DNA of 64,000 nt from a virus (taxonomy: Duplodnaviria; Heunggongvirae; Uroviricota; Caudoviricetes), in the IMG/VR virus record IMGVR_UViG_3300006204_000424, positions 22,382 to 86,381 of that record. One strand, given 5' to 3'. The notes under the pieces were generated by a model. That model did not search any database, was not told the DNA's origin, and saw nothing but the letters and a program-made list of their open reading frames with translations. Each line of letters opens with the position of its first letter. Position 1 is the stretch's first letter. Both the position numbers and the translations under genes were made by a program. Below are positions 17,158-55,688 of this stretch, one piece after another.

Positions 17158-18288
17158 ATGAGTGAAACATATCTGGATCTGACACACAGTAATTTTCCAG
17201 AGCAAATGGATAAAATGTACGGCTGGCGAGACCCCTCCGCAAGCGAAGTGCCGCTGATTGCACAATATCAGTCCCTAATCGCGTCTGGGCAGGTTGTGAC
17301 TGCTGTTGAGTACCTGAACAGCCACCCTTCCTTAATGGACGTTATCATAAACGCCGACAAGCTGCTCCGCTTACAGCATGGACTGACTGCCGTACAGCGG
17401 TATTTTTACGATAATGTTCTGGATAAGATATACCGCCTTGGAAACATGAAAGGCGATTGGAACAGTCAAATGTCATCCGAAGCAGGCGGGCAGAACCGTT
17501 TGAATAAATTTGACGTAGTACGCTATCCCGTTGACGGCGTAAAACAGTATTTCCTCGTCATCGGTGAAGAAGTCCCTGCTGGTACACTGCCTACTGACGA
17601 AACTGTATATTTGCAGCTTTCCATGAAGGGCGACAAAGGCGATGCCGGTATTGACGGTGTTGACGGCGCACCTGGGCTTGGCATGTCGCCACAAGGCGCA
17701 TGGGTAAATAACAAGCAGTATCATCAATATGACATCGTTTCCCATGATGGATATCTCTGGTATGCCACGGAAGATAATGCATTGACGGAGCCGTCCGATG
17801 ACAATGCTGTGTGGCAGCGTGTACAGATTTCCATGCAGGTTACAACCAGCACAGAAAGGCCCGTAAATTTAGATGATGGTGGTCTGTGGCTGCACATGCA
17901 GGAAGATGGCCACGTTATACTGAAAACAAAAAACGAGAATGGCGAATACCGCACTGTTTATCCAGAAATACAGGCCGCATATGTTTTAGATGCCGCTGGA
18001 GAAAATTTGCAGCGGAAAATATACCGCCATTATTTTGAACGAGATGATGTAACCTCGCACTACAAAGAAAATGACAATATTTACACAGGCGAAGCGAAGC
18101 TGATCAGCAATCCCGCTGTTACTGTTGCTAAGTCTGTAATGACGGATACTTCTGATACAGACGGAAGGTATACGGAAGAATTTACCGTTTATGATGAAAC
18201 TGGCGTTTATATTGTATACAAAACAAAACGTGTTTTTACAGAAAATGAAGATGGAAGCTATGACTGCACGCCAGAAGTGATTGTGTAA
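17158..18288 (+). CDS. Tail fibre protein with collagen-like Gly-X-Y segment
   Basis: KGDKGDAGIDGVDGAPGLG collagen-like repeat, typical of phage fibres. Confidence 0.55.
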   Translation: MSETYLDLTHSNFPEQMDKMYGWRDPSASEVPLIAQYQSLIASGQVVTAVEYLNSHPSLMDVIINADKLLRLQHGLTAVQRYFYDNVLDKIYRLGNMKGDWNSQMSSEAGGQNRLNKFDVVRYPVDGVKQYFLVIGEEVPAGTLPTDETVYLQLSMKGDKGDAGIDGVDGAPGLGMSPQGAWVNNKQYHQYDIVSHDGYLWYATEDNALTEPSDDNAVWQRVQISMQVTTSTERPVNLDDGGLWLHMQEDGHVILKTKNENGEYRTVYPEIQAAYVLDAAGENLQRKIYRHYFERDDVTSHYKENDNIYTGEAKLISNPAVTVAKSVMTDTSDTDGRYTEEFTVYDETGVYIVYKTKRVFTENEDGSYDCTPEVIV

Positions 18289-18317
18289 AGAACACAGAGA
18301 GGAGCTGAAAGAGTATA

Positions 18318-18443
18318 ATGACAATGTTAGTAGAAAGTTTGAGAAGGCTTTATTCCAAAGGCGAAATTACGCTGGAACGTTTGGAAAGCATGATTGGCAA
18401 GTCAATTACGAACGAAGATTTTAGATATATCACGAAAGAATAA
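18318..18443 (+). CDS. XkdX-like small phage protein
   Basis: 41 aa with ...KSITNEDFRYITKE C-terminus (IT..E.y..IT pattern shared with the XkdX-like ORF at 23402). AGAGGAG RBS. Confidence 0.4.
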   Translation: MTMLVESLRRLYSKGEITLERLESMIGKSITNEDFRYITKE

Positions 18444-18485
18444 TTGCCCGATTGAAAGGGTTTTTTATATGCTAAGGAGGAAAAT

Positions 18486-18527
18486 ATGACTTATATTTTA
18501 GGTAGAAAAATTACCCCCCCCCCCTAA
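18486..18527 (+). promoter_or_regulatory. Leader ORF A (MTYILGRKITPPP*) containing an 11-nt poly-C tract (18514-18524) upstream of fibre gene A
   Basis: AAGGAGG RBS, ATG, ...ATT ACC CCC CCC CCC TAA. One of three paralogous cassettes (see findings). Confidence 0.5.
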
Positions 18528-18580
18528 AACATATCTGATTACTATGAATTTGGCGGTATCTCGATTGGAGGTGCTGCGGT

Positions 18581-19372
18581 ATGAATGGTGATTTTGATTT
18601 ATATGTTTTGAATGGGAAAATAAAAGAACTGAGGAAAAGCAACGAGCGGCAGGAAAATGGACTCGGACAGATAGAAGAAAATATTTCTATGATTGGTGAA
18701 AAAATGGAAAACTTATCTGTTGACGTTGATTTGAGCAGCTTAAACAGTACGATTGGGACTGGCTCATTTGCTTCATTAGATAAAATCATTAAAGATGGAA
18801 CTTCAAGTGTCTCTGCCCTTATCTCTGCTTTGAATGGCAAAATAAGTACAGTTTCTGGAGGTGTAAGAAAGTTTACCGCCGATGGAACATTTACCGTTCC
18901 GGCGAATGTAACTAAGATTTGGATTACCGCTTGCGCAGGCGGAGGATACGGAGAACGATATAAAGGCGGCGATGGCGGAGATTGGCTGTTCCGTGAGCCA
19001 TACTCTGTAACTCCGGGGCAAAAACTTACTATTACGGTTGGAAAAGGTGGAATTAGGGTAGGAGATATAGGAGGTTCCACCGTAATTTCCCCTTTGGTAA
19101 CGCTTACTTGTCCGGGACAAAGAGGGGGTATTGGTGGAGATAGTAATGCATATGAATCGCCTTTTGGTATAAATGGAACTGATGGATATGCTGGTGGAGG
19201 TCATGGCACAACTATCAAATCAGGAGAAGGTTTTTTGGCTAATCGCTATGGCGGCGGAGGAAGTTTAGGGAGAGGAGGAGGATATAAAGGTGGGACAAAT
19301 ATTGATCCTGGATATGGTGGCGGTGGCAGCAGCGGAAATGGCAGCGATGGCGTTGTCATTATCGAATGGTAA
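18581..19372 (+). CDS. Glycine-rich tail fibre / receptor-binding candidate (fibre A)
   Basis: GGAGGTG RBS. GGGYG, GGIGGD and GGGGS repeats. Confidence 0.5.
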   Translation: MNGDFDLYVLNGKIKELRKSNERQENGLGQIEENISMIGEKMENLSVDVDLSSLNSTIGTGSFASLDKIIKDGTSSVSALISALNGKISTVSGGVRKFTADGTFTVPANVTKIWITACAGGGYGERYKGGDGGDWLFREPYSVTPGQKLTITVGKGGIRVGDIGGSTVISPLVTLTCPGQRGGIGGDSNAYESPFGINGTDGYAGGGHGTTIKSGEGFLANRYGGGGSLGRGGGYKGGTNIDPGYGGGGSSGNGSDGVVIIEW

Positions 19373-19384
19373 GGAGGTGAACGC

Positions 19385-19726
19385 ATGACGTATGCAATGA
19401 TTTTACAGAATAAAGTAATCGATGTACTGCCGAATCAGGAAACCGAACCATGGTGGCCGCCAGACCCAGCAGGGAATCCGGTTACGGCGGTGCTTTGCGA
19501 TGATACGGTCAAGAAAGGAATGGAATATGAACCAGAAACAGGTGAGTTTTCCGAATACATACCGCCAGAACCAGAACCAGAGCCAATCCCAGAACCGACA
19601 CAGCTTGACCGCATCGAAGCAGCAATCAGTCAATCAAATACATACCTTTCTCAAACTTACTCCGAAATTGAAAATAGAATTATCGACAACTACACAATGT
19701 CTTTGGTCGAAAACAATATCATCTAA
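19385..19726 (+). CDS. XkdW-like protein (paralog 1)
   Basis: PEPEPEPIPEPTQLDRIEAAISQSN motif shared with the ORFs at 23059 and 24750. Confidence 0.5.
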   Translation: MTYAMILQNKVIDVLPNQETEPWWPPDPAGNPVTAVLCDDTVKKGMEYEPETGEFSEYIPPEPEPEPIPEPTQLDRIEAAISQSNTYLSQTYSEIENRIIDNYTMSLVENNII

Positions 19727-19768
19727 AAAATCACCATTCATACAAACAACTTTAAGGAGGAAATTTGT

Positions 19769-20080
19769 ATGAATACAGTTTATGACTTTGCTCAACAGCG
19801 CAAAGCAGAAAAAGAACGATTAAAAAAATTCGATATTACATTATCCGCAGATCATTGGTCTGATACCCTCCCCTACTCTCAGACTGTACAGGTTCAAGGG
19901 GTTACTGGAACAAATATCGTTTTTATAGCCCCTGAACCTGTACAGGAAAATATTGAAGGAGTTGGTGATTGCAAAATCATAGCAACTGAACAAACTACGA
20001 ATGCAATCACCTTCACAGCATTTGACGCAAAGCCTGATATTAACATTAACTTTCATGTTTTAGTTGGGGGTGAGGGTTAA
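19769..20080 (+). CDS. Hypothetical tail-associated protein, overlaps the next gene (ATGCC/TAATG)
   Basis: AAGGAGG RBS. 103 aa. Stop overlaps the start of the 20080 gene. Confidence 0.4.
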   Translation: MNTVYDFAQQRKAEKERLKKFDITLSADHWSDTLPYSQTVQVQGVTGTNIVFIAPEPVQENIEGVGDCKIIATEQTTNAITFTAFDAKPDININFHVLVGGEG

Positions 20081-21318
20081 TGCCAATTATCAATGAAACC
20101 ATTATCAGCGGTGTAAATGCCAAAAATGCTACCGCTACCAGCAAGGATATTCTGCAAGGTAAAACTGCTGTTGCAGGAAAAGAATTGATTACAGGTTCTA
20201 TGCCAGACAAAACTGGTCAAACGGTTAATGGCACATTCTATTCTGGCACTACTGGCTATATCACAGGCAAAATTGCTCAAGAGGGACATTATGCTACGAA
20301 TAGTAAATTAAAGATACCTGTATCTAATTTAACTGCCGGGAATATTAAAAAAGGTATTAATATAGGCGGAGTTGTAGGCACTCTTGAACCTATTCCATCA
20401 AATTTGTCTTTGTTTGCCGAATATTTTTCTCCTGCTAATAACGATTCTGAAATTGTAAATTTTAGTAATGGCAGTTTAGCCATACCCAATACATATTCGG
20501 ATCGTGGCGGTGTATGTTTAGTCAATGGCATCACTACAACTGTTAAATCTTTGGTAAATGGCTCTAACGTTAGACAGTTAGTAGGCGGAGGAACTAAAGC
20601 TATGATCAGAGGGAACTATGGAGCTTTTATATCTACTGACTCTGGTTCTATCTGGAAATCCCCCGTTGGCGTTAATATAACTTCTAGTACAAGTGCGGCA
20701 TTTATAAGGTTCAATGGCTCTAAATTTTATGTATGTATAGGTCTGAATTACACAACCCCACACTATGTTTCAAATACTGCCTGTACTTCTTTTTCTGTTG
20801 TTTCTATTCCATCAAATGATTATGAAGTTGGAAGTAGCACTGATGGTATTTGGTATGCTTATAATCATTCACTGGGCGGCATTTATTCCTCCAGTGATTT
20901 AATAAATTGGACAAAAAAATATACTCTCACAAGCAATGTAACAAATTTTATTAGTCTTTACAAACTAGGTTCTATTGTGTGTGCAACTTTTAATGGGCGC
21001 AGTCGTTCAGGTAGCAATAATACTTCTGCCACATATATCTCTTATGATAACGGACTGACATTTAGTGATAGTTTAAGTATCGGTATATCCTCGTCATATA
21101 CTCATCATAACCATATATTTACCCATAAAAATAATATATTTGTATATAGTTTTCATTCTTCTAAATTACCTCAGACAGTCTACAAAGTTGCCAATGGCAC
21201 AAAAACCATTATTAACTTACCAACAGTAAACTCAAAATACCCGAACATTATAGGTTCTAATGGAACATCATTAATTTTAGCTTATAATAATGGCGTTATT
21301 AGAACAATGTCAGTATAA
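20080..21318 (+). CDS. Receptor-binding protein candidate with BNR/Asp-box (sialidase-like) repeats
   Basis: Asp-box-like S-x-D-x-G-x-(T/S)-W/F motifs (STDSGSIWK, SYDNGLTFS) in the C-terminal half. Confidence 0.5.
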   Translation: MPIINETIISGVNAKNATATSKDILQGKTAVAGKELITGSMPDKTGQTVNGTFYSGTTGYITGKIAQEGHYATNSKLKIPVSNLTAGNIKKGINIGGVVGTLEPIPSNLSLFAEYFSPANNDSEIVNFSNGSLAIPNTYSDRGGVCLVNGITTTVKSLVNGSNVRQLVGGGTKAMIRGNYGAFISTDSGSIWKSPVGVNITSSTSAAFIRFNGSKFYVCIGLNYTTPHYVSNTACTSFSVVSIPSNDYEVGSSTDGIWYAYNHSLGGIYSSSDLINWTKKYTLTSNVTNFISLYKLGSIVCATFNGRSRSGSNNTSATYISYDNGLTFSDSLSIGISSSYTHHNHIFTHKNNIFVYSFHSSKLPQTVYKVANGTKTIINLPTVNSKYPNIIGSNGTSLILAYNNGVIRTMSV

Positions 21319-21403
21319 GATACTGATACTATTTTCTTTATAGTAGTATTTTACTTATACAATAATACGATAAAATCATACAAAACAGTGAGGTGAACAA
21401 CAA

Positions 21404-21976
21404 ATGGATTTATCTGAATTTATTATCAGCAAAATAGAAAATATCACCCCCACAGCTATTATTTTCTGCTGTATTCTTCTGTTCCTTATCATTAATTGGG
21501 TCATTTCAAAAAAAGATTTCTTCATTGATACATGGAACAAATTTTATGAACATCGCAAACGCAGGGAAGAATTTTTTCAAATGCTGATTGATGATCATAA
21601 ACGAATAAAAGAGTATGAAGAAAATCGTATCCATGACAGGGAGCAGTCTTTTCAGATTCAAAAACAGCTGATTGATGCCAATGCAAATCTGGCAGAAAAA
21701 CTTGAATCAATGTCCCAGAAAATTGACGCAAATCAAAAACTTACCGATGAGAGATTTGCCGCATCTGAGGAAAGCAGCAAACAGCGTATACGTGCCGAAT
21801 TGAAAGACAAGCTTCTCAGGGCATACAGACAGCATCATGCCGCCGCACACATTTCTTCTATGGAATTAGAGGCAATGTCAGAACTGATTGAAGTATACTC
21901 TCAAAATGGCGGCAATAGTTTTGTACATGAAATCATTGTTCCCGAAATGTATACTTGGGAAGTTGTAGATGAATAA
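21404..21976 (+). CDS. Membrane-anchored coiled-coil protein
   Basis: N-terminal TM segment AIIFCCILLFLIINWVI, then charged coiled-coil. Confidence 0.4.
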   Translation: MDLSEFIISKIENITPTAIIFCCILLFLIINWVISKKDFFIDTWNKFYEHRKRREEFFQMLIDDHKRIKEYEENRIHDREQSFQIQKQLIDANANLAEKLESMSQKIDANQKLTDERFAASEESSKQRIRAELKDKLLRAYRQHHAAAHISSMELEAMSELIEVYSQNGGNSFVHEIIVPEMYTWEVVDE

Positions 21977-21990
21977 TCCGAGGTGGTAAA

Positions 21991-22332
21991 ATGGCTGCCA
22001 AAAATAAAACTGCCCATGCCACAAAAAAGGCTGCAAAACAAAAAGTACAGACATCAAAACTCATAGTATACTCAAGCCTTGCCCTGTCGTGGGCTTTTAT
22101 TATTTTTATTTGCTATGAGATGCACAGGCTATGTGATTTAAGTCCTGTTGCTGTCATAGGAACATCAATTGTAGGAATGATTGCGGCTACAAATGCGGCT
22201 TATATGTGGAGGGCAAAGCAGGAGGATTATTTAAGGCTTGAGTTAGAAAAAATAAAACGGCTCTCTGAAATGAAGAAAAAATATGGAGATGATTTCATTT
22301 CAGAGGAATTACACGAGGTAAATATGAACTAA
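21991..22332 (+). CDS. Small two-TM membrane protein with Lys-rich N-terminus
   Basis: AKNKTAHATKKAAKQK followed by two hydrophobic helices. Confidence 0.4.
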   Translation: MAAKNKTAHATKKAAKQKVQTSKLIVYSSLALSWAFIIFICYEMHRLCDLSPVAVIGTSIVGMIAATNAAYMWRAKQEDYLRLELEKIKRLSEMKKKYGDDFISEELHEVNMN

Positions 22333-22348
22333 ATGAAAGGAGCATTTC

Positions 22349-22399
22349 ATGGAATATTTGTTAAATAAAACTACCCCCCCCCCCGAAAATTTGAACTAA
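22349..22399 (+). promoter_or_regulatory. Leader ORF B (MEYLLNKTTPPPENLN*) containing an 11-nt poly-C tract (22374-22384) upstream of fibre gene B
   Basis: AAAGGAG RBS plus ATG. Poly-C encodes PPP. Paralogous to leaders A and C. Confidence 0.5.
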
Positions 22400-22457
22400 A
22401 TCAATGCGTACTTCAGACGATTTATTGTGGATATTTTCGAAAGAAGGTGTCCGCATA

Positions 22458-23057
22458 ATGATGGATTGGAATTATTTAATTTTAGGCAGAATCAAGAAAA
22501 TTTTAAACTCCATTTCTTCTATACAGAATCTGCTGTCTTCTACACAGAAGCTGATTGGTACAACAACAGACATAGGCGGGAGCCAGACGGCAGGGACGGT
22601 GTTTGGTAAGGAAAATGCGATACTGGAAACGTTGAAAGAACAGAATGCAAAAATCTTTACAAGTATGGTATGGAAGCAGACTGCAAAAAAGGCCGTGACA
22701 ACCGCTATGAGCGGAGTGAAAATATTGAGTTTTTCTTTTGAAAGTCCGGTTAAATTCAGAGCAATAAACATTGAAGGTACTATAGATTTAGGACAATTTG
22801 CTTCGGCGTATTTTATTAACGGAGAAAGCTCATTCACAGCGTTAGCGTCTATTGCCAGTTCTACTGCTAGATATATGATAGCCGTTGACGGTGGTTCCCG
22901 TAACCGCTTTTTACTTAAAACAAGTTTTGGAGAACGCGAAAATATTTTACAGGACATTTGGATAACACAGATAGATATTCATTTCCCTGCTGTTGCTGCG
23001 GATAAAGTTTCAACATACAATGGCTACGTAGAATATCAGGAAGGGCAGGCGGGATAA
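22458..23057 (+). CDS. Short tail fibre / receptor-binding candidate (fibre B)
   Basis: N-terminus MMDWNYLILGRIKKILNS is paralogous to fibre C (MISDWNTVILSKVKNILGK). Conserved upstream TTCGAAAGAAGGTGT element. Start moved from the track ATG 22404 to 22458 by this homology. Confidence 0.5.
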   Translation: MMDWNYLILGRIKKILNSISSIQNLLSSTQKLIGTTTDIGGSQTAGTVFGKENAILETLKEQNAKIFTSMVWKQTAKKAVTTAMSGVKILSFSFESPVKFRAINIEGTIDLGQFASAYFINGESSFTALASIASSTARYMIAVDGGSRNRFLLKTSFGERENILQDIWITQIDIHFPAVAADKVSTYNGYVEYQEGQAG

Positions 23058-23058
23058 A

Positions 23059-23370
23059 ATGCTGTTATATTTGGATGAAAACCGGAAAATCATTGATAAC
23101 AACTATGTAATCAGCCATGCCAGCGCATTAAAGATAATGGCAGAAAATCCCCTTGCGGAATGGCACGATATTGATTTTTCCTTTGCAATGGGCGAAAACA
23201 GGGCTGGATATGATAAAGTCTTTTATCTGGAAACGGATGGGATGATTCGGATTGAGTATGAGGAAATACCACCCGAACCAGCCCCGCCCCTTTCCGAACA
23301 GGAGCAGATTGCCATTGACACGGCGTTGAATGTGGAATACATTGCCTGCCTGATGGAGGCAAATTTATAA
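23059..23370 (+). CDS. XkdW-like protein (paralog 2)
   Basis: About 100 aa. EEIPPEPAPPLSEQEQIAIDTALN motif. Located between the fibre and the XkdX-like ORF as in PBSX-type late regions. Confidence 0.55.
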   Translation: MLLYLDENRKIIDNNYVISHASALKIMAENPLAEWHDIDFSFAMGENRAGYDKVFYLETDGMIRIEYEEIPPEPAPPLSEQEQIAIDTALNVEYIACLMEANL

Positions 23371-23401
23371 CGACTTTGAAATAATATGAGGAGGAATTTT
23401 C

Positions 23402-23542
23402 ATGATTTACACACTGCTGAAAAACAAAATCACACGGGGTACATACGACAGGGAGGATTTGAAAAACAAGATGGACACATACCTGCTGTTCGGACGCATC
23501 ACGGAGGAACAGTATACGGAACTGACGGGGCTGATGGCATGA
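23402..23542 (+). CDS. XkdX-like small phage protein
   Basis: 46 aa MIYTLLKNKITRGTYDREDLKNKMDTYLLFGRITEEQYTELTGLMA. GAGGAGG RBS. Sits immediately before the holin. Confidence 0.5.
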   Translation: MIYTLLKNKITRGTYDREDLKNKMDTYLLFGRITEEQYTELTGLMA

Positions 23543-23614
23543 TTACGATACATGAAAAGTGTTAATATTTCAACATAATCAGGAGTTTAACTGAAATATA
23601 TAAGGAGGAAAATT

Positions 23615-23980
23615 ATGACAGATATTACGATAATTTTAGAAACAATTATTAAGTTGGCTTGTTTGGTGTTTTTGCTTTTTGTAATCCCCTGTTTGAAAAC
23701 CGCTGGGGCAAATAACAAACTGCTGGCGGCATTAAAGGTCTCTGATGAAATTGCAAAAATTGCAGGTATTGTTGTACGTTCTGCAAACGAACTTGAAATC
23801 ACAGGAGACCTTCTAAAACTTGGAATTACAAAGGCTGATTATGCTATGGAACAGGTCAAAAAAGAACTTGAAAGCAGAGGAATTACTTTTAATGAAGATT
23901 TGATTGTAAAATATATCAAAGCCGCCGTGACAGAACTGCGGGTTGAAATTGCGAATACCCCCGCTGAAAAGGAAAACTAA
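23615..23980 (+). CDS. Phage holin
   Basis: 121 aa with N-terminal TM helix LACLVFLLFVIPCL and a charged C-terminal tail. Upstream of the endolysin. Confidence 0.6.
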   Translation: MTDITIILETIIKLACLVFLLFVIPCLKTAGANNKLLAALKVSDEIAKIAGIVVRSANELEITGDLLKLGITKADYAMEQVKKELESRGITFNEDLIVKYIKAAVTELRVEIANTPAEKEN

Positions 23981-24048
23981 ATAACTTTATTTGAGCAGGG
24001 TAAACCACCCTGCTCTATTCATTTCATACAAAAATGAGGAGGAATTCT

Positions 24049-24096
24049 ATGTATTTATTTGTTAGTAAAATCACCCCCCCCCCCCCGAAAATTTAA
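24049..24096 (+). promoter_or_regulatory. Leader ORF C (MYLFVSKITPPPPKI*) containing a 13-nt poly-C tract (24074-24086) upstream of fibre gene C
   Basis: GAGGAGG RBS plus ATG. Paralogous to leader B. Confidence 0.5.
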
Positions 24097-24156
24097 CCTA
24101 AAAACAAGACTTATTCCAGCCAGATTTTGTAAGTATTTTCGAAAGAAGGTGTTTGC

Positions 24157-24726
24157 ATGATTTCGGATTGGAATACAGTTATTTTGAGTAAGGTAAAAAA
24201 TATATTAGGTAAGATTACAGAACAAAGCAATAAAATAGATGCTGCCAGTTCTATTGCAGAAAATATCCATACAAAGATTGATACGTTGGATGAAAATATA
24301 AATGGAATTAAAACTACATCTGATTCTATCAGTTCAAGCGTGTCAAGTCTTGGTACAATCAATTCAAACGTTTCCTCTGTGAAAAATACCGTTTCAAGCA
24401 TGTCTTCTACGCTGTCTACGGTAAATACTAATGTGAAGAATTTAATGAATAGCGGGAATAGTGTGGTAAAGAGTGTACAGAGGGGAATCGTTAGTAGCAG
24501 TAGAACAATAACTATTTCGACTGTTAATTTATCTAAAAGTATTATTATTACATCTGGCGACGGCCCCGCTGCTTTTTTTGTTAGTAGTAATAGTAGTCTT
24601 TATGGCTCATATGGTCTGGGACGATTCGAAAGCAGTACCCAAATATTTATTAATGTTGCACGTGGAAGTTATGGGGGAAGTTCGTATAGTGCTCAAGTAG
24701 CCTGGCAAGTTATTGAATTTTATTGA
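24157..24726 (+). CDS. Short tail fibre / receptor-binding candidate (fibre C), located between holin and endolysin
   Basis: N-terminal paralogy to fibre B. Ser/Thr/Asn-rich repeats. Confidence 0.5.
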   Translation: MISDWNTVILSKVKNILGKITEQSNKIDAASSIAENIHTKIDTLDENINGIKTTSDSISSSVSSLGTINSNVSSVKNTVSSMSSTLSTVNTNVKNLMNSGNSVVKSVQRGIVSSSRTITISTVNLSKSIIITSGDGPAAFFVSSNSSLYGSYGLGRFESSTQIFINVARGSYGGSSYSAQVAWQVIEFY

Positions 24727-24749
24727 TAAATGGAAATGGAGGTGAATTT

Positions 24750-25052
24750 ATGTCTTTTATTTATGCACAAATTGATGAAAATAATATCTGCTGCGCTGTT
24801 TCTAATCTTTCTGGTGAAATATTCGATACACATTTAATCCCTATTCAAACATTCGACACAACCATGATTGGGAAGAAATTTTCAGATGGTCACTGGCTGG
24901 AAGTGCCAAAATCAGAAATGGGAGAAACCATAGCTCCTGAACCCACACAGCTTGACCGCATTGAAGCTGCCATAAATATGAAAAATAATGAAATTTCAGA
25001 AAGGGCAATTGATACATACACAAAGCAACTGTTGGAAAACGGTTTACTTTAA
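24750..25052 (+). CDS. XkdW-like protein (paralog 3)
   Basis: ETIAPEPTQLDRIEAAINMKNNE motif, nearly identical to the one at 19385. GGAGGTG RBS at ATG 24750. Confidence 0.5.
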   Translation: MSFIYAQIDENNICCAVSNLSGEIFDTHLIPIQTFDTTMIGKKFSDGHWLEVPKSEMGETIAPEPTQLDRIEAAINMKNNEISERAIDTYTKQLLENGLL

Positions 25053-25110
25053 CCTTATACTTCCCTGCCCTTCATCGGGTAGGGATTTTTTTACGAAATG
25101 AGGTGACAAA

Positions 25111-25743
25111 TTGTCAAAGAAAATGACAGGCAAAGAATTAGTGGCATTTGCAAGGTCTAAAATTGGAACACCTTATGTTTATGGTGCAAAGGGTGAGGTT
25201 TTAACAAAAGAAAAATATGACTGGCTGAAAAAACAATATGGTTCCTTGGTTTGGGACAGCGATAAGAAAAAAATCGGAAAGGTTTGTGTGGACTGCTCAG
25301 GACTGCTCTCTTGGGCTTGTGGTGTTGTTTTAGGCTCTAGTCAGTGGAATAGTCATGCTGATGTGAAAAAGCCGATACAAAGCATCTCAGAGGCTCCTAT
25401 GGGGGCTTTGGTCTGGTGTAAAGGACACATTGGCGTTTACAGTGGTTTGAAGAATGGAGTCCCTTGCTATATCGCAGCAGATGGATCAGCATATGGTGTG
25501 CGGGAAGTGCCATTGAGCCAGAATAAGTTCACACATTGGCTGCTTGTCCATGATTTTTTCGAGTATGAGGAGGACGAAATGGTAGAAAGAGATATGATTG
25601 TTGTAAATGATACAGAATATAGTGTTGATATGATTCGGAAAGATGGGACTACGTTTATTAAAACCAGGGATATTGCTGATATTCTAGGAATGAAGGTATC
25701 GAGTAATGGGAGGATTCCTGTGTTGGAGAGTGGGAAGAAGTGA
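25111..25743 (+). CDS. NlpC/P60 (CHAP-like) cell-wall peptidase, endolysin
   Basis: Catalytic Cys context CVDCSGL and His context KGHIGVYSG. End of the lysis cassette. Confidence 0.65.
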   Translation: MSKKMTGKELVAFARSKIGTPYVYGAKGEVLTKEKYDWLKKQYGSLVWDSDKKKIGKVCVDCSGLLSWACGVVLGSSQWNSHADVKKPIQSISEAPMGALVWCKGHIGVYSGLKNGVPCYIAADGSAYGVREVPLSQNKFTHWLLVHDFFEYEEDEMVERDMIVVNDTEYSVDMIRKDGTTFIKTRDIADILGMKVSSNGRIPVLESGKK

Positions 25744-26131: not shown

Positions 26132-26350
26132 ATGCGTCCAAAAAAGAAGTTATCCAAGATGAAAGGGGATGTTTATATGCGGACTATAACTGATTCTCAT
26201 ATGAATGATTTGAAAAAACGCGCATCTCAAAGACGCATCCTTTTCCCCAATCAAAAAAACTCAGAAGATGTAAAACTAGAAAATGATTTTTTTGAAGATG
26301 TAAAGAATAAAATGTATGAACAAATTTCGGAGGATGAAAAATGGAATTGA
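26132..26350 (+). CDS. Putative antitoxin partner of the MazF-like toxin
   Basis: 72-aa ORF overlapping the toxin start by 10 nt. Basic N-terminus. Confidence 0.4.
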   Translation: MRPKKKLSKMKGDVYMRTITDSHMNDLKKRASQRRILFPNQKNSEDVKLENDFFEDVKNKMYEQISEDEKWN

Positions 26351-26760
26351 AACGTGGGGAAATATATTATATAACTTTTCCATATACCCTTGATCCAAAG
26401 TATCCTAATGGTAAACCTAAATTTGTATTGGTATTACAAGAGGGCGAATACTTTGCAAAATATAACACGGTTGAAATAATGCTTATTACTTCTGATAAGC
26501 AATATAAGCCTAGAGAAAAATATGCTACTGATGTAGAAATAGAAGTGGGGACAACAAAACTTAAAGATAAATCATGGGTTCTTTGTTCACAACCTTATCC
26601 AATTGAAAAGAAGTTATTTGAGCAATCTGGCGTATGGTGTGCGGGGATGTTATCTGCCGAAAAAATGGATGAAATCGATGAAGCTACTTATATTGGATTA
26701 TGTATGGGGTTACAGCATGAACTTGCACTTGAACCAGCAGATGAAGATTCTGATAATTGA
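26341..26760 (+). CDS. MazF/PemK-family mRNA interferase toxin
   Basis: RGEIYYITFPY...GKPKFVLVLQEG...VEIMLITSDKQ...KSWVLCSQPYPIEKK matches the MazF/PemK fold motif order. Confidence 0.65.
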   Translation: MELKRGEIYYITFPYTLDPKYPNGKPKFVLVLQEGEYFAKYNTVEIMLITSDKQYKPREKYATDVEIEVGTTKLKDKSWVLCSQPYPIEKKLFEQSGVWCAGMLSAEKMDEIDEATYIGLCMGLQHELALEPADEDSDN

Positions 26761-27171: not shown

Positions 27172-28170
27172 TTACAAGAAATTAAAATAACTGCCAAGAC
27201 CCTTTTCAAGAGCTCTTTTATAAGCAACTCCAGCAACGGCGATATCCATAGCCCCTGTACCAATAGGAATACATATAATTCGTTCTTTGCTAACATTTTG
27301 TACAGATTTCTTGTTAGTTGCAATTTCACCTATTGTAGCATAGATATTTTCTTCATGAATTTTTTCATCTTCAACTACATCATGCAGGGCTCCACGATGT
27401 AGGCATTGACCAATATGATCAACAATAATTCTATCAGCATTTAGCAGTAAAGTATCTTCGCATTCCGTATAAGAACCCATAGGGAACACAATTTGTCCTG
27501 GCTTGATCCAATCGTCTTTTATGAATTTATCTTTGGATTGTGTGAAAGCAACAACAACATCGCCAACTGCCGCATCTTCCGGATTGTCGCAAATAATAAT
27601 TTCACCTTTTACAACGTTTTTCATATTTTCCTTAAATTTTGCAGCTGCCGCCGGAAGCATATCATAAACCCTCAATTCTTTGATATCAAATAACTCCGCA
27701 AATGCCAATGTCTGCATATGTCCTTGCATACCAGCTCCATATAAGCCAATTTTAATTTCTTTCCCGGTATACAAATATTTTGTCGCAACAGCAGCTTGCG
27801 CACCTGTGCGCAGATTTGTAATCAAAGCACCATCCATCATACATTTAAATTCGCCAATCGAAGGGTCAATCAGCATAATTGCAGCCGTGACATAAGGTAA
27901 TCCCATTTCACGACGTTTTCCAAGAAATCCTCCAGCCCATTTAATACCAGCAATATCCAGCCATCCGACATAAGCAGGCATAGCATTCATAAAACCTTCG
28001 TAAGCAGGATAAGATGCGGTTTCTCCCAAATCAAGATTAACTTTCGTAGGATTAATTGTCGTCCCTTCACCAAACCCGATGAACGTTTTGTCAACAATCT
28101 CAACGATATCTTTCATAGTGAGAAGATTATCAATATCAGATTGTTTCAGTAGCATAGTCTTATGTTCCAT
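27172..28170 (-). CDS. Ornithine cyclodeaminase / mu-crystallin family enzyme
   Basis: 332 aa. N-terminal LLKQSDIDNLLTMKDIVEIVDKTF. Rossmann motif IGLYGAGMQG. Confidence 0.65.
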   Translation of the reverse strand: MEHKTMLLKQSDIDNLLTMKDIVEIVDKTFIGFGEGTTINPTKVNLDLGETASYPAYEGFMNAMPAYVGWLDIAGIKWAGGFLGKRREMGLPYVTAAIMLIDPSIGEFKCMMDGALITNLRTGAQAAVATKYLYTGKEIKIGLYGAGMQGHMQTLAFAELFDIKELRVYDMLPAAAAKFKENMKNVVKGEIIICDNPEDAAVGDVVVAFTQSKDKFIKDDWIKPGQIVFPMGSYTECEDTLLLNADRIIVDHIGQCLHRGALHDVVEDEKIHEENIYATIGEIATNKKSVQNVSKERIICIPIGTGAMDIAVAGVAYKRALEKGLGSYFNFL

Positions 28171-28194
28171 GATTCATTTCCCCTTTCTTTTTAA

Positions 28195-29667
28195 TCAGTC
28201 ATTATTTTTGTTTATAGTAGAAACTGAACCTCTATTGCTCAGTTTGCTAACAAGAAGGAGTGCAACTACAGATGCTATAAGTCCCCAGATTACATAAGGC
28301 ACAGGAGATTTAAGCAAGGTAGCAATGATACAGCCCAAAATTCCGCATATCATACTTGCTCGTATACCCGCAGTAGTCACCATATTTCTTTTGCGAAGAA
28401 AGTATCCCAGATACATAGGCGCAGCCAAACCAGCAGCAGAATATGCGTAGGTTGTTACAATCGCATTCAATACGTTTGGATAAATGATAGAAAGCGTTGC
28501 CGCAAGGATTAACACAATAACCGAAAGAATCCTTGAAATCTTTAGCAATTTTTTGCTGTCAGTTTCCGGATGTGCCGACTGATAAATATCATGTGTCAGA
28601 TTTACCACAACAGACTGTGCTGCTGAACTTATGGTAGACATAATTGTTGCTACTATCAGACCAGCAAACAGTGCAACCAAAAATATTGGCATCTGCGTCA
28701 ATAGCCATCCAGTGGCATTTTCTCCTTCTATATTAGGGTTCATAGCATGTATTCCCAGACCTAATATACAAGACCAAGCTAATCCTATCAGGATAATTAT
28801 GGCGCTGATGATCAAACTTCTATTAACTTGTTTTTTGTTCTCAATTGCACAAATCCTCTGAAAATACATCTGGTTTGTCATGCCGCCAGGTAATGTAGAA
28901 AAGATCCATAAAAATACAGTGCCCCAACCAACACTAATAAAACCTCTTGGCATTTCAATGATTTCAGATGGGACTCTAACTTTGATATCTGCCACAGAGC
29001 CGCCATTCCGCATAACGAAAGCAAAAGTAACCAGCATGATTACAAGCATAAAACAGCCAAAGAAAAAGTCTGTCCATGCTACTGTTTTCATGCCAGAAGG
29101 CATGACAAAGAGAATGCTGCATATCGCCATTGCAATAATTAGAAATTCCAAAGGCAATCCAGTGATTTCCCGATAGATTTTTGCAAAAGCGGTCATCTGG
29201 GAAATAAGCCAGCCAAATGGCACCAATATAGTTAAGATAGATGCACATACTTTTACAAAACGGTCATTGTTACTAAAACTGCCTACCATATCAGGAATTG
29301 TTTCAAATTCATTTTCTCGTATCCAATTACCAATGAGCATATAAATCAAAAATGGCAAAACAGCAAAAACAGCATAGATTATCATGGCTAAACCATTGTT
29401 ATACGCATTGCCAACCTGCCCGACAAGCACGCCTCCGCCCATTGCACTGGCAAACTGAGTGCCTATTATCACATAAAGCGGCAGGCTTCGACCACCAATA
29501 TTCCAATCTTCTGTTGCATCAGCTTTCTTCTTATTTCGCTTATTGATCACAGTTGTGAGGAAAAAACTCAAAGCCAAAATTGTAATTGTTGCTATAACTG
29601 TAATAATCGCTTTTGTCGTCATTTTTTTCTCCTTTCTGTTGAAATAACAATTCTCAGGATTCATCAT
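28195..29667 (-). CDS. Sodium:solute symporter family transporter
   Basis: 490 aa, multi-pass membrane protein. GTQFASAMGGGVLVGQ region typical of the SSS family. Confidence 0.65.
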   Translation of the reverse strand: MMNPENCYFNRKEKKMTTKAIITVIATITILALSFFLTTVINKRNKKKADATEDWNIGGRSLPLYVIIGTQFASAMGGGVLVGQVGNAYNNGLAMIIYAVFAVLPFLIYMLIGNWIRENEFETIPDMVGSFSNNDRFVKVCASILTILVPFGWLISQMTAFAKIYREITGLPLEFLIIAMAICSILFVMPSGMKTVAWTDFFFGCFMLVIMLVTFAFVMRNGGSVADIKVRVPSEIIEMPRGFISVGWGTVFLWIFSTLPGGMTNQMYFQRICAIENKKQVNRSLIISAIIILIGLAWSCILGLGIHAMNPNIEGENATGWLLTQMPIFLVALFAGLIVATIMSTISSAAQSVVVNLTHDIYQSAHPETDSKKLLKISRILSVIVLILAATLSIIYPNVLNAIVTTYAYSAAGLAAPMYLGYFLRKRNMVTTAGIRASMICGILGCIIATLLKSPVPYVIWGLIASVVALLLVSKLSNRGSVSTINKNND

Positions 29668-47605: not shown

Positions 47606-49372
47606 TTAATTATAACTTGGTTCACTTTTGTCAAATCTTACAGTTTCAAACACTGGAAATTGGATTGATATACCTCCATCCTTATTCTTTGTTTCTTCTT
47701 TATACTTCACAGTAATGATTTTACCAATTACGCCTTCAGGATTTTGCCAAATTCGTTTTCTATCTTCATCAGAAAATCCACTCCCAACATTAACTTTATT
47801 CCCCTTATAGTCACACACCAACGCTCCCAATGTTCCTCTGTTGCGTCCTGAACCTCCTTCTATGCCAATACACTTAATATCGCAAGATAAAAACTTTTTA
47901 ACCTTTATCAAATTTTTAGTACGCTTGCATTCATAAGGTTCATCTAAATTGATAATAACGCCCTCCCAGTCATTTTCTTCAGCATAATCTAGCCACTTCC
48001 AGATTTCAGAATGATCTGTACCGGCATATAACTGATTTACAACCTCTATATTCTTACAGCAAACATCCTGCAATTGTAAATCAAATAGATTTAAGGCTTT
48101 TCTGCGATTTTTATACGTATTATGTGATTTGCCATTCCAAAATTCTTCTAGCGGAAACAAATCAAATACTACTAATTTTAAGTCCAGTTTATTTTCATCT
48201 TTACTCATCGCTATTCCAGTACCTTTTTGGAAAGATTCTGAGTCTGATAGCCCTTCGCTATTTTTATATAAAAGTTCACCATCAATGAAATAATTCTCAT
48301 ATCCCGTTTTCGTAATATCATTGATAATATGATCCAAGCCTATATATTCTTTTCCCTGTCTGGTCATACACTTATTGCCTACAAAAGCACATCTACAATT
48401 ATGAACCGCATATCCATTTGCGAAATAAGTATGATTATTCTCAACTTCTATGTCATAAGCTCTATTGGATTTTCTTTCACTTGAATGGTTAAATTTAAGT
48501 TCTTCACTTAAAATAATTTTTTCTATTTTTCTTTCAATTAATTTATATTCCCCATAACATTTCGTCCAATCATAATCCTTAATATAGATAGTATCTCCTT
48601 TATATAAGGTTCCCGCCTCTTTCCACCCATCAGGAGTGAATATTTTATGATTTTTTGTTACTTGAATAAAATCTCTAAGGTTCCCTCTTTCTACGGCAGT
48701 TTCTATTTGCATCCATTCTGACCTATCTTTTAGTCCGTTATCAAATACATTTATTACTTTTTGTTTTGATATTTTTTTGGTATTTTCATTAAATGATAAA
48801 ACTTCATCGCCTATAACTATATCTTTAATTTTCTTTTTTGTATTATCAGACATAGTAATATATGTATTTCCATCAAAACATCCGTTTAACTTTCTGGATA
48901 TAGAAATCCATTCATTGCCTTTTAGTTTCACTTTATCAATCGGAGTACCAAGCATAACATCAAAGGTCGGAATAAGTCCATGAATGCACTTGTTCACTAA
49001 TTTTGCATCAGCTCCAAGTTTTATACTTTTTGTGATCAATCCTCTAACAAAATCTTTTACTTCATTACTCATCATACAGCACCACGACTGTACATGTATT
49101 ACATCTTCTTCTCTTCCTGTGTTGTGTTGCTTAATATAATTCAACAATCCTAAAAATTCACTATCAATATCATTATGTACCCAATCTGATGTTTGAACTG
49201 TAATTGAATCAAATTTCTTTTCTGCAATTCCTGTTGTTACATTTCCATCTAACAGGAACTTCAAACATTCCTTAAATAACTCGTTATCTTTGTTATTTGT
49301 AATGATTTTCTTTTTGTCATTTAGGCTACTTGTTTTCTGAATTTGCTTAAATAATTTTATAACTTCTAACAA
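47606..49372 (-). CDS. ATP-dependent DNA ligase interrupted by a mini-intein
   Basis: After removing residues 165-325, motif I is KLNG|CR. Motif III LVVFDL, motif IV EGVIINL, motif V LIKVKK. C-terminal OB-like FPVFETVRFDKS. Confidence 0.65.
   Translation of the reverse strand: MLEVIKLFKQIQKTSSLNDKKKIITNNKDNELFKECLKFLLDGNVTTGIAEKKFDSITVQTSDWVHNDIDSEFLGLLNYIKQHNTGREEDVIHVQSWCCMMSNEVKDFVRGLITKSIKLGADAKLVNKCIHGLIPTFDVMLGTPIDKVKLKGNEWISISRKLNGCFDGNTYITMSDNTKKKIKDIVIGDEVLSFNENTKKISKQKVINVFDNGLKDRSEWMQIETAVERGNLRDFIQVTKNHKIFTPDGWKEAGTLYKGDTIYIKDYDWTKCYGEYKLIERKIEKIILSEELKFNHSSERKSNRAYDIEVENNHTYFANGYAVHNCRCAFVGNKCMTRQGKEYIGLDHIINDITKTGYENYFIDGELLYKNSEGLSDSESFQKGTGIAMSKDENKLDLKLVVFDLFPLEEFWNGKSHNTYKNRRKALNLFDLQLQDVCCKNIEVVNQLYAGTDHSEIWKWLDYAEENDWEGVIINLDEPYECKRTKNLIKVKKFLSCDIKCIGIEGGSGRNRGTLGALVCDYKGNKVNVGSGFSDEDRKRIWQNPEGVIGKIITVKYKEETKNKDGGISIQFPVFETVRFDKSEPSYN
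48398..48880 (-). mobile_element. 161-aa mini-intein (no endonuclease domain) inserted at ligase motif I
   Basis: Begins with Cys + block A (CFDGNTYITMSDNTKKKIKDIVIGDEVLS). Ends TYFANGYAVHN followed by the +1 Cys. Confidence 0.65.
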
Positions 49373-53432: not shown

Positions 53433-55688
53433 TCAAAACACCAACTTTGGATGAGCAGTATCATATAAACATTGCTGCAGATGGGTTTGCTTCTTACTTA
53501 CTCCCTCTTTACTAATCGCCATTCTCAACGCTCCAATTTGTGCTACCATATCACACATTCTTTTTGCTCTCGTGATTCCTGTATATAATAATTCTCTTGT
53601 TAGCAGCGAATATGACCCAAAATCAATCCCGAATATTACATGGTCAAATTGTGATCCTTGCGATTTATGAACAGTAATTGCGTATCCAAGTTCAATACTG
53701 TTTACCTGAGTTCCTTCAACATAAACTTCTCCAATTCCCATGAATGAAATAATTAATGCTTTGTCTTCTGGGAACACATCTTTAATAATCCCCAAATTAC
53801 CGTTAAAAATTGGTGGAATGGTCTTATAGGTATTCTGTGTATTTATAACCTTGTCTCCCTGTCGGAGAATTGTAACTTTTCCTTGGGACACTACTTCAAT
53901 CTGTGGTTTGCTGTCATCACTTGGATTGTACAAATCTTGAATTGTATTATTGATATTATAAGTACAAGCATCTCCATTATTTTTTACTGGCACTAATATC
54001 TGAGTTTCCATTATGTCAAAATTTTCTTTATTCATTGCTTCTGAAAACTTCTGCATAACTTTATAAAATGTATTGCTCTTGTCAGAATAACAATCTAAAG
54101 ACAAATCCTTTAGTTCTCCTCGAATATCTGTACCAACCCAATCTTTTTCTACAATCTGTATTCCTTGTCTAATCTGTCTTGCCTCTGTAACGATTGCTGA
54201 TGAAGCAGCTTGTCTATGCACCTGGCTAAGATACACTGTAGGAATTTCTGGCGAATGGATCATATCAAACGCAATATTTCCACAACCAATAGACTCTAAC
54301 TGTCCCATATCACCCAAACAAATCAGCTTTGCTCCTGAAGGAATCGCTCTAATCAGATAATAGAACAAATACGCATCTACCATTGAAATTTCATCAACAA
54401 TTACGATATCTACGTCCAAAGGATTTTCATCGTGATATGTAAAACCATTTTTACCACCTTCGCCTTGGCACGGATATTTCAACAACCTATGAATCGTGTA
54501 CCCTTCTTCTCCTGTAATCTCTGCCATTCTGGAACTTGCTCTACCAGATAATGCACATTGTACATATACATAATTCTTTAGTGCTTCAAGAAAAGCTGAT
54601 ACAGAAGAACTTTTTCCTGTTCCGGCTTCTCCATGAATAACCACCACATTGTTTTCAAGTGCTTCTTTCACACCTAGCTTTTGTTCTTCTGTAAATTGCC
54701 AGCCATTCTTATGTTCAACGTGCTTAATTGTGTCTTCCCAATCTCCATAAGCGATTTCTGACTTTGCATCTCGTATTCTGATTAATTCTTTCGCAATCTT
54801 ATCTTCTACATTGAAATATTTTCTGAGTCCGATTTGCGTTTTGTCCTCATTCCACCACAAATCTTCTTCCATAGCATGAATCGCTTCTGTAATATTGGCA
54901 TCAGGTATTTCTTCTCCTAACATTTCAATAATTGCACCCATTAGTTCATCTGGTGTTACCCATGAACAACCATTCTGTCCCGAATCGTCCAAATACTTAT
55001 ACATATAAGCACTGATACGCTCTATACTATATTCTCCCATTCCTCCTTCAAGTGCGATTTTATCAGCGGTCTTCCAGCCGATACCTTTCACTTCATTGCA
55101 TAAAACATATGGATTGTTTTTTACTTTCTCAATTACAAGGTCTGGCGAATTGTACTTCTCCATCAATCTTTGTACCATATTATTTGTCAGGTTAAAATCC
55201 TCTAATTCCGAGAAAATCTTTGCAAGATGCATATTTCGATTGAATCTATCTATCCATCTTGCAGCCGTATCAAGCCCACACCCTTTTACTTGAACCAAAT
55301 CTTCTGCTCTATTATTCTTCAAAGACTCAAATGGATTATCTAAAACAGCGTACATATTCTCAATCTGTAACGGAGTAAACAAAGTGGACAGGAATTTTTT
55401 CTGTCCCACTATGTCATCCTCACCAAAAGTAATAGCACTATAGATTGAAATGATATTGTACTGACCTCCCCATTTCGGATCTTCTACATAATCAGCTACC
55501 AATATATAAGGATTACCTTCAATCAATTGAGGCATTGTTCCCTTAATAATAATTTGGTTGAATTTATCTGTCTTTAGTTTACCTTCCTTTACTTTGTCTA
55601 CCGAAACAACCGCTATACCAAATTCATTTTTATAAAACCTGATTGTTTCTACACTGCAAATAATTTTTATTCTATCTTCTAGTGCCAT
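53433..55688 (-). CDS. RecD2/YrrC-like SF1 DNA helicase
   Basis: Walker A HGEAGTGKSS, Walker B VIVDEISMVD, motif YAITVHKSQGSQFDHV. Confidence 0.75.
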   Translation of the reverse strand: MALEDRIKIICSVETIRFYKNEFGIAVVSVDKVKEGKLKTDKFNQIIIKGTMPQLIEGNPYILVADYVEDPKWGGQYNIISIYSAITFGEDDIVGQKKFLSTLFTPLQIENMYAVLDNPFESLKNNRAEDLVQVKGCGLDTAARWIDRFNRNMHLAKIFSELEDFNLTNNMVQRLMEKYNSPDLVIEKVKNNPYVLCNEVKGIGWKTADKIALEGGMGEYSIERISAYMYKYLDDSGQNGCSWVTPDELMGAIIEMLGEEIPDANITEAIHAMEEDLWWNEDKTQIGLRKYFNVEDKIAKELIRIRDAKSEIAYGDWEDTIKHVEHKNGWQFTEEQKLGVKEALENNVVVIHGEAGTGKSSSVSAFLEALKNYVYVQCALSGRASSRMAEITGEEGYTIHRLLKYPCQGEGGKNGFTYHDENPLDVDIVIVDEISMVDAYLFYYLIRAIPSGAKLICLGDMGQLESIGCGNIAFDMIHSPEIPTVYLSQVHRQAASSAIVTEARQIRQGIQIVEKDWVGTDIRGELKDLSLDCYSDKSNTFYKVMQKFSEAMNKENFDIMETQILVPVKNNGDACTYNINNTIQDLYNPSDDSKPQIEVVSQGKVTILRQGDKVINTQNTYKTIPPIFNGNLGIIKDVFPEDKALIISFMGIGEVYVEGTQVNSIELGYAITVHKSQGSQFDHVIFGIDFGSYSLLTRELLYTGITRAKRMCDMVAQIGALRMAISKEGVSKKQTHLQQCLYDTAHPKLVF

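Follow-up and report, generated by a model that had tools for sequence, protein, structure and literature searches.

Polymorphic poly-C tracts in short leader reading frames suggest contingency loci acting through translational coupling in a tailed phage

Among the means by which phages switch their host-recognition proteins are the invertible segments of Mu (Gin/G) and P1 (Cin) and diversity-generating retroelements (DGRs) such as that of BPP-1. Translation can also be governed by an upstream reading frame: coupling from the coat gene to the replicase and lysis genes of MS2 works through a hairpin that sequesters the Shine–Dalgarno (SD) sequence, and ermC and cat are subject to leader-peptide translational attenuation. 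To our knowledge, contingency loci of phages have been recognised only recently, in Campylobacter phages in 2021 and in T-even phages in 2025, and all described cases are in-gene frameshifts. In Fletchervirus phages of Campylobacter, genes for receptor-binding proteins contain polyG tracts (Sorensen et al. 2021, Cell Rep 35:109214, as cited in 10.1101/2025.10.21.683753), and T2 and T4 have contingency loci within open reading frames (ORFs) (10.1101/2025.10.21.683753). In the lex2 locus of Haemophilus influenzae a tetranucleotide repeat is located in lex2A and the glycosyltransferase is Lex2B (PMC3116884). Repeats in 5' untranslated regions (5'-UTRs) that act post-transcriptionally include a G-repeat of Helicobacter pylori targeted by a small RNA and, in H. 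influenzae hmw, a 5'-UTR with a hairpin and RNase III involvement (PMC12721329). We analysed a stretch of 64,000 nucleotides (nt) of a virus of the Caudoviricetes (positions 22,382 to 86,381 of IMG/VR record IMGVR_UViG_3300006204_000424; hereafter the window), in which three paralogous cassettes, A, B and C, each place a short leader ORF with a long poly-C tract in front of a putative receptor-binding gene. From their sequences we consider it likely that these cassettes are contingency loci acting through translational coupling.

Cassette B, the subject of the initial annotation, is laid out as follows (lengths of products in amino acids, aa).

22336-22342, + strand: SD sequence AAAGGAG of leader B, 6 nt 5' of the leader ATG, kept in all homologous contigs
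22349-22351, + strand: leader B ATG
22349-22399, + strand: leader ORF B as sequenced (C11), MEYLLNKTTPPPENLN followed by TAA at 22397-22399; the short state, ending 27 nt before the hairpin
22374-22384, + strand: hypermutable poly-C tract B, C11 here and C7-C13 in relatives, beginning eight codons past the ATG
22349-22458, + strand: long leader frame B, 36 aa at C12 and 35 aa at C9, crossing the hairpin to TAA 22456-22458
22426-22455, + strand: hairpin B, 13 bp with a GAAA loop (UGUGGAUAUUUUC-GAAA-GAAGGUGUCCGCA), -16.1 kcal/mol, with the main-gene SD GAAGGUG (22443-22449) in its 3' arm
22458-23057, + strand: main gene B, 199 aa, putative receptor-binding or tail-tip protein
23059-23370, + strand: 103-aa ORF 3' of B after a 2-nt gap, possible chaperone or partner

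At 12 C the leader reads MEYLLNKTTPPPRKFELNQCVLQTIYCGYFRKKVSA and stops after 36 aa, its TAA at 22456-22458 sharing an A with the main ATG at 22458-22460; at 10 C it ends in PPPKI at a TGA (22392-22394). More generally, the short phases (C10, C13 and so on; C8, C11 and so on) stop 2-4 codons past the tract and ~30 nt before the hairpin, and the long phase (C9, C12) runs for 24 further codons through the hairpin to end on the main start codon (TAATG or ATGA). The initial annotation had described the C11 leader, the C12 leader with its TAATG overlap and the early stop at C10, and all three readings are correct. The 36-aa C12 leader, which it had predicted, occurs exactly in two natural copies (L087, L090). 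The main frame is also open from an ATG at 22404 (217 aa), which has no SD; the start at 22458 is favoured by the N-terminus common to B and C (MISDWN and MMDWN). Depending on tract length, gene callers have annotated the locus (L082-L091) in three ways: as an ORF of 199 aa, as one of 217 aa beginning at the ATG that lacks an SD, or as a 36-aa ORF accompanied by a truncated one.

The tract does not lie inside the coding sequence that it might regulate. At C10, leader B and the main ORF share a frame, yet a TGA intervenes in all variants, and no frame fuses the leader to the main ORF in any of the >30 variants examined. We therefore rejected a leader-main ORF fusion, whether as an in-ORF switch, by stop-codon readthrough or with TGA read as Trp, since one TGA (B) or two TAAs (C) always intervene; the other ORFs of the window read normally under genetic code 11. 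The SD of leader B begins 4 nt past the stop of an upstream 113-aa ORF (21991-22332) with no terminator between them. Cassette B is thus probably co-transcribed with the preceding gene, in which case its control must act post-transcriptionally.

Long C runs are exceptional in this DNA. The window has 34% GC and 18.9% C, and run counts over the whole 64 kb gave only three long C runs: C11 at 18514-18524, C11 at 22374-22384 and C13 at 24074-24086. Apart from these, the longest run is 6 for C and 5 for G, and the three runs of at least 11 C compare with ~6e-4 expected, as estimated from composition. All three (11-13 nt) are thus far longer than composition predicts, as is characteristic of contingency loci. 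Each stands upstream of a putative receptor-binding gene, in one of three paralogous 42-nt contexts, and the placement is identical in A, B and C: the tract lies 25-28 nt past an ATG with its SD and starts at codon position 2 (A-CC CCC...). An Rfam search of 18000-25500 returned no relevant family, and a conserved 19-mer had no match in IMG/VR and only chance matches in species-representative genomes. The corresponding features of the other two cassettes are listed below.

18474-18591, + strand: cassette A control region, with SD 18474-18480, leader ATG 18486 and C11 18514-18524
from 18486, + strand: cassette A leader as sequenced, MTYILGRKITPPP followed by a stop
stop TGA 18589-18591, + strand: cassette A long frame (C10, 34 aa), main ATG at 18581
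18553-18577, + strand: hairpin A, unrelated in sequence, 10 bp, -14.5 kcal/mol, holding SD GGAGGUG
18581-19372, + strand: main gene A (263 aa), whose product has a Gly_rich_2 domain and PHROG matches that are tail-fibre-like
24036-24160, + strand: cassette C control region, with SD 24036-24042, leader ATG 24049 and C13 24074-24086
from 24049, + strand: cassette C leader as sequenced, MYLFVSKITPPPPKI followed by a stop
TGA 24158-24160, + strand: cassette C long frame (C12, 36 aa; C9, 35 aa), main ATG at 24157, overlap ATGA
24128-24157, + strand: hairpin C, the same helix as in B, -8.8 kcal/mol for the inner part and -26.5 kcal/mol with the outer stem
24157-24726, + strand: main gene C, 189 aa, with the N-terminal motif of B, a coiled-coil stretch and, at the C-terminus, a head of '...WQVIEFY' type

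All three cassettes are in short-leader phases in the window copy. Cassette C is flanked by terminator-like hairpins at 23993-24015 and 25062-25085. Around cassette A there is a perfect 17-nt inverted repeat, GTATGAATGGTGATTTT, with one copy at 18579-18595, covering the start codon of gene A, and the other at 19727-19743, just 3' of the stop of the ORF 19385-19726. The two bracket 1131 nt, and in 6.9 kb chance would give ~0.001 such repeats. An invertase was not seen in the vicinity, and on the minus strand the ORF starting at 19741 has only 35 aa. The repeat could be the relic of an invertible segment, or could allow long-range RNA pairing that hides the AUG.

Tract length was compared in a set of >30 independent contigs, collected from homologues of protein B and from exact-sequence look-ups of the adjacent 113-aa protein, the holin and protein A.

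Cassette B, 17 contigs: C7-C13; long in 3 (L087 and L090 with C12, L067 with ACT plus C10); short in 6 ending in ENLN and 8 ending in KI
Cassette C, 14 contigs: C9-C14; long in 4 (all C9); short in 10
Cassette A, 6 contigs: C10-C12; long in 3 (C10); short in 3

The initial annotation would have been contradicted by a uniform tract, and what was found is heterogeneity at all three loci on near-identical flanks. Among the C10-C13 contigs the flanks of tract B differ at 0-2 positions over 247 nt, which marks the tract as a mutational hot spot; tract length is therefore polymorphic among otherwise identical genomes at A, B and C, as in contingency loci. All three phases are populated. The sequenced state had been described as one unit away from the coupled one: C12 is indeed the coupled frame, but C11 is simply one of two short phases, and natural copies occupy every one of the three. 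Many short-read contigs stop within ~250 nt 3' of the tract, which suggests heterogeneity of the population downstream, possibly through head swapping.

An artefact of sequencing or assembly at the homopolymers is extremely improbable. Illumina reads and assemblers do mis-call long C or G runs by ~1, and the coverage of some contigs is low (L063 at 2.2x). However, >30 contigs from different studies and assemblers gave lengths from 7 to 14, and did so at three loci; the 64 kb contain no further long run, and one allele is interrupted. This interruption, the only one in ~37 copies, is in contig L068, the tract of which (1496-1506) reads C7-A-C3 and is fixed in the short phase ending in ENLN. The L068 hairpin (~1548-1577) has a U-U mismatch and folds at -9.2 instead of -16.1 kcal/mol. 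This single case is suggestive, and L068 may represent a locked and constitutively leaky version of the cassette.

The frame logic is conserved together with the variable tract. The initial annotation had made conservation of the extended frame in related phages a test of its proposal; in all B and C variants this frame runs without interruption from the tract as far as the main start, on which it terminates even if the stop codon itself has changed. The overlap is TAATG in most B copies and ATGA in L067, L068 and all C copies; in L067 and L068 the TAA has become CAA, and the next codon, TGA, restores the overlap as ATGA. In cassette A the long frame stops 8 nt past the main ATG. In the long phase of all three cassettes, the upstream stop thus overlaps or abuts the downstream start, as expected for translational coupling. 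Of the other two frames, neither extends more than 5 codons past the tract in any of the three cassettes, and the third stays open over 21-24 codons. B and C also have the hairpin equally far from the tract, despite a spacer that is only about half identical.

An open frame of this length is in itself weak evidence: the chance of 24 open codons is 0.18 in random sequence and 0.34 at any position of the window. This figure is one of the points in favour of neutrality, according to which the tracts are merely hypermutable, a duplicated cassette has left the leader and its long frame behind as relics, and the main genes are translated from their own SDs whatever the tract length. A, B and C are paralogous, such that common features may be inherited and not selected, and the distribution of phases is about random. 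However, long C tracts should decay in a genome of 34% GC unless they are maintained, and just one of ~37 copies is interrupted. Cassette A has diverged and yet keeps the SD and ATG and the phase of the tract; two of its frames still stop early, the third is still open, and the SD is again in a hairpin, though one that differs in sequence. This full pattern, repeated in a diverged cassette, is much less likely by chance. The hairpin has moreover undergone compensatory changes, and the layout recurs with poly-G and in unrelated phages (see below). We consequently give neutrality very little credence.

The structure at the main start points to how leader and main gene would be linked. In A, B and C alike, folding yields a hairpin whose 3' arm carries the main-gene SD and which ends 0-3 nt short of the ATG. 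In B, an outer stem pairs 22411-22423 in the spacer with 22460-22470, that is with codons 2-5 of the main gene, so that the main AUG is enclosed as well. When the nine distinct B and C sequences are aligned, 99.1% of the pair cells of the 13-pair helix are paired, compared with at most 68% when the partners are slid, and three pairs show compensatory double changes, for example GG/CC to AA/UU. The long leader frame is the only frame that traverses the hairpin. The downstream SD and AUG are therefore held in a structure that is crossed by the upstream ORF, an arrangement to which the hairpin of cassette A is analogous, and this combination provides a physical basis for coupling. No alternative anti-sequestor pairing was found by folding at the cassettes. 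The coupling interpretation of the initial annotation thus gains support from an SD hairpin with covariation that only the long frame crosses, as far as this can be judged from the DNA itself.

A different use of the tract would be non-heritable recoding, in which slippage of RNA polymerase on C11-C13, or +1/-1 slippage of tRNA-Pro on CCC-C, feeds a fixed fraction of ribosomes into the long frame and the DNA polymorphism is a by-product. Long homopolymers do cause transcriptional slippage and CCC-C codons promote tRNA-Pro frameshifting; recoding would also explain why all-short genomes persist and why the long phase is not enriched. Programmed frameshift sites, on the other hand, have a slippery sequence that does not vary, followed at 5-9 nt by a stimulator, and here the length varies from 7 to 14 and the hairpin lies 41 nt past the tract. 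A poly-G version would need a different slippage chemistry. As recoding would still rely on coupling between leader and hairpin, it is a modifier rather than an alternative, and we think it unlikely to be the main function of the tract.

We find it hard to accept the tract as a promoter spacer, in which its length would tune transcription between a -35-like TTGTTA in the leader and a -10-like GAAAAT just past the tract, as at Neisseria porA and opc or Bordetella fim. These hexamers do flank the tract in B and C. Measured from the leader ATG, the motif ATTTGTTA is offset by 1 nt in C compared with B, which indicates conservation as DNA and not as codons, and cassette C, located between two terminator-like hairpins, may need a promoter of its own. 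Yet the hexamers are weak (8/12 matches, below the scan threshold), and a spacer of 17-18 nt requires C7-C8, whereas most natural tracts are C9-C14 and give 19-24 nt, outside the 16-19 nt that a promoter spacer should have at the common lengths. Cassette A lacks comparable hexamers, and B abuts the upstream gene directly with no terminator between. Tuning of a promoter would also leave unexplained the leader SD and ATG, the open third frame and the SD hairpin, which would still be present on any such transcript.

Relatives with the other homopolymer bear on several of these questions. In P2-like relatives, a poly-G leader beginning MNSLHKFRGG(G)... precedes a gene with a Gly_rich_2 domain, the domain type of fibre A; the start region of this gene resembles that of cassette A.

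L055, 1564-1652: G10, short
L058, 1366-1452: G8, long; the frame HYLTGKCSGFPVSGGGCV ends with ATGA on the main start

Since the same layout exists with poly-G, it does not matter whether Pro or Gly is encoded or which strand holds the tract, and stalling at proline codons is not required; the role for pausing at PPP proposed in the initial annotation is therefore not supported. The same design with poly-G also makes a promoter-spacer role unlikely. We rejected an apparent inverted homology between L055 and leader B, which probably stems from flanks that are AT-rich and quasi-palindromic; in direct orientation, the alignment of L055 is with cassette A, in the region of the main start.

Similar arrangements were found outside this group of phages. 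Unrelated IMG/VR contigs (L001/L021, L022 and L038) have G-tract leaders in which one frame ends on or next to the downstream start, with the SD in a hairpin. An unbiased scan for the pattern SD-ATG-(12-36 nt)-C10 or longer added L140, L160/L188, L161, L175 and L182/L212, all with short G- or C-tract leaders and one frame ending at the start of the downstream ORF. The scan yielded 38 in-ORF tracts, 16 tracts of leader type by a loose criterion that admits some chance cases and ordinary small genes, and 16 others. In other contigs a long ORF has the tract in its N-terminus, in L019 and L043 within a lipoprotein signal peptide, and in one family, 'aggagta-Cn-gaaaatttctttcat', the tract has 9, 9, 9, 10, 13 or 15 units. 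A universal phage motif 'TA-Cn-GAAAATTT' was discarded: the first scan had forced GAAAATTT, and the unbiased scan gave diverse flanks. We tentatively raise the possibility, which we hold to be somewhat less probable than its opposite, that the cassettes exemplify a widespread and undescribed phage module, in which a leader of 14-40 aa with poly-C or poly-G has one frame passing through an SD-sequestering hairpin onto the start of an accessory gene and serves as a heritable, stochastic and reversible three-state switch. If general, this would be the second main use of contingency loci by phages, besides in-ORF tracts.

The nature of the regulated proteins is suggested by their surroundings and modular make-up. 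Products A, B and C share the N-terminal motif M..D(W/F)(N/D)..(I/V)L..(I/V)K, and each gene is closely followed by an ORF of 103-113 aa. The first ~55 residues of protein B recur on proteins with unrelated C-terminal domains (P0005-P0008). Its C-terminal ~170 aa are 95% identical to a protein of P2-like prophage contigs (L053-L062), from which the N-terminal ~30 aa differ. In those contigs, which are of myovirus type, the order is Baseplate_J, Tail_P2_I, tail fibre and then, directly after the fibre gene and without a leader, the homologue of the B head, which has a 93-aa ORF 3' of it. The 95% identity of the heads indicates a recent exchange of head domains between very different tail types. 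Related heads, including the '...WQVIEFY' type, are also attached to BppU_N proteins (baseplate upper protein, N-terminal domain). By their tail context and modularity, the three products would be exchangeable receptor-binding tips on a common adaptor. For B, the label 'fibre' used in the initial annotation agrees with this context and modularity, but protein B had no match in Pfam or PHROG, PDB sequence searches returned nothing, and its AlphaFold2 (AF2) model (pLDDT, the predicted local distance difference test score, of 46) was too poor for a fold search.

The switch we propose would operate as follows. Tract length would change most plausibly by slipped-strand mispairing during replication, and would select which of three frames the leader ribosome follows. 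In the short phases the hairpin would stay closed and the receptor-binding gene would be poorly translated. In the long phase the ribosome would unwind the hairpin and re-initiate, or admit a new 30S subunit, thereby switching on the main gene together with the small ORF behind it. Three such cassettes, with different heads on a common adaptor, could yield virions with differing accessory host-recognition proteins, a form of bet-hedging on host range. A leak is also conceivable, with slippage of RNA polymerase or tRNA-Pro giving some expression from the short phases, and it would fit the two genomes in which all cassettes are short, the window and a 66-kb contig from JGI.

Several points weigh against this interpretation. 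The dependence of the main genes on translation of the leader, and with it the labels ON and OFF, are deduced from sequence. The main genes have good SDs, and leaky or structure-independent initiation is possible. The covariation in the helix derives from few independent events, namely the split between B and C and a few point changes. The long state is not enriched, with 10 of the 37 observations against a random expectation of ~1/3, and the two genomes just mentioned have all three cassettes in short phases; the genes would therefore be dispensable, or leaky, or served by slippage at the level of RNA or ribosome. The notion of exactly one cassette in the presumed ON state per genome found no support: few genomes could be scored for at least two cassettes, and these two have none ON. 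The consensus of a contig may mis-call a homopolymer by about one unit, which the observed range of 7-14 far exceeds. Finally, a receptor-binding role of B is without family or structural support.

The rest of the window agrees with a phage of considerable size. The + strand from ~3.9 to 26 kb is the tail and lysis region, and the - strand from 30 to 64 kb carries replication functions.

within ~3.9-26 kb, + strand: tape-measure-like protein, 1773 aa
13593-18288, + strand: tail and fibre proteins
23615-23980, + strand: holin
53433-55688, - strand: RecD2 helicase
55703-59638, - strand: DnaE-type polymerase, 38% identical to YorL of Bacillus SPbeta-like phages
62536-63996, - strand: DnaB helicase

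The element is probably a large SPbeta-like phage or prophage of a Firmicute, and one related contig comes from mouse gut; a megablast of the tail region against GenBank phages gave no match. The replication module also includes an ATP-dependent DNA ligase with an intein (Hint and Intein_splicing domains; 47606-49372, - strand). Between the tail/lysis and replication modules there are an ornithine cyclodeaminase and a sodium:solute symporter (27172-29667, - strand, and 26341-26760, + strand) with an adjoining MazF-like gene; this region may consist of morons, or may be host DNA that separates two elements. An AAA_15/AAA_21 (AbiEii-like) ATPase encoded ahead of the tape-measure gene (693-2339, + strand) may represent a phage-borne defence or anti-defence function.

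If the proposed switch is real, a protein would be made or not made but never truncated, and the gene and its partner would be switched as one operon unit. Three switches before three head domains would provide up to 8 virion types in a temperate gut phage, without recombinase or retroelement, from a compact design of ~110 nt. Assemblies and gene callers will mis-annotate such loci, and host-range predictions made from consensus genomes may be wrong for part of the population.

Each element of this proposal has precedents: hypermutable phage tracts, coupling through SD hairpins and repeats in upstream ORFs are all already known, and the tract fails the defining test of the in-ORF class. In a literature search we found no paper on a homopolymer in a leader ORF that selects the frame through an SD hairpin, nor one combining phase variation, homopolymer and translational coupling. 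The cassettes share with Mu, P1 and BPP-1 the goal of phage populations with alternative host-recognition proteins, but would switch by repeat slippage, and neither an invertase nor a reverse transcriptase was seen in the window. As in H. pylori and hmw, repeat length would alter expression after transcription via features of the mRNA; those systems use small-RNA pairing or RNA processing, whereas here the frame of a translated leader changes. At lex2, too, the gene that is governed is a separate one, downstream of a short ORF with a simple-sequence repeat; lex2 is bacterial and its repeat is a tetranucleotide, whereas the present loci are of a phage, have homopolymers and form three paralogous cassettes. 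Coupling would link lex2A to Lex2B, and we know of no SD hairpin there. With MS2 and ermC the cassettes have in common an upstream ORF translated through a structure that hides the downstream SD and AUG, and an upstream stop overlapping the downstream start. However, the input is constant in MS2 and is a drug-stalled ribosome remodelling the pairings in ermC; here a heritable and reversible change in the length of a DNA repeat would select the leader frame. As far as Fletchervirus, T2 and T4 are covered by the accounts cited above, the likeness lies in hypermutable phage homopolymers that create subpopulations differing in host-recognition or anti-defence genes, at comparable tract lengths (7-11 G). 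There the tract is part of the coding sequence, and frameshifting leads to a truncated protein, whereas in the cassettes described here it is in a separate leader ORF of 14-36 aa and would act through coupling and the SD hairpin.

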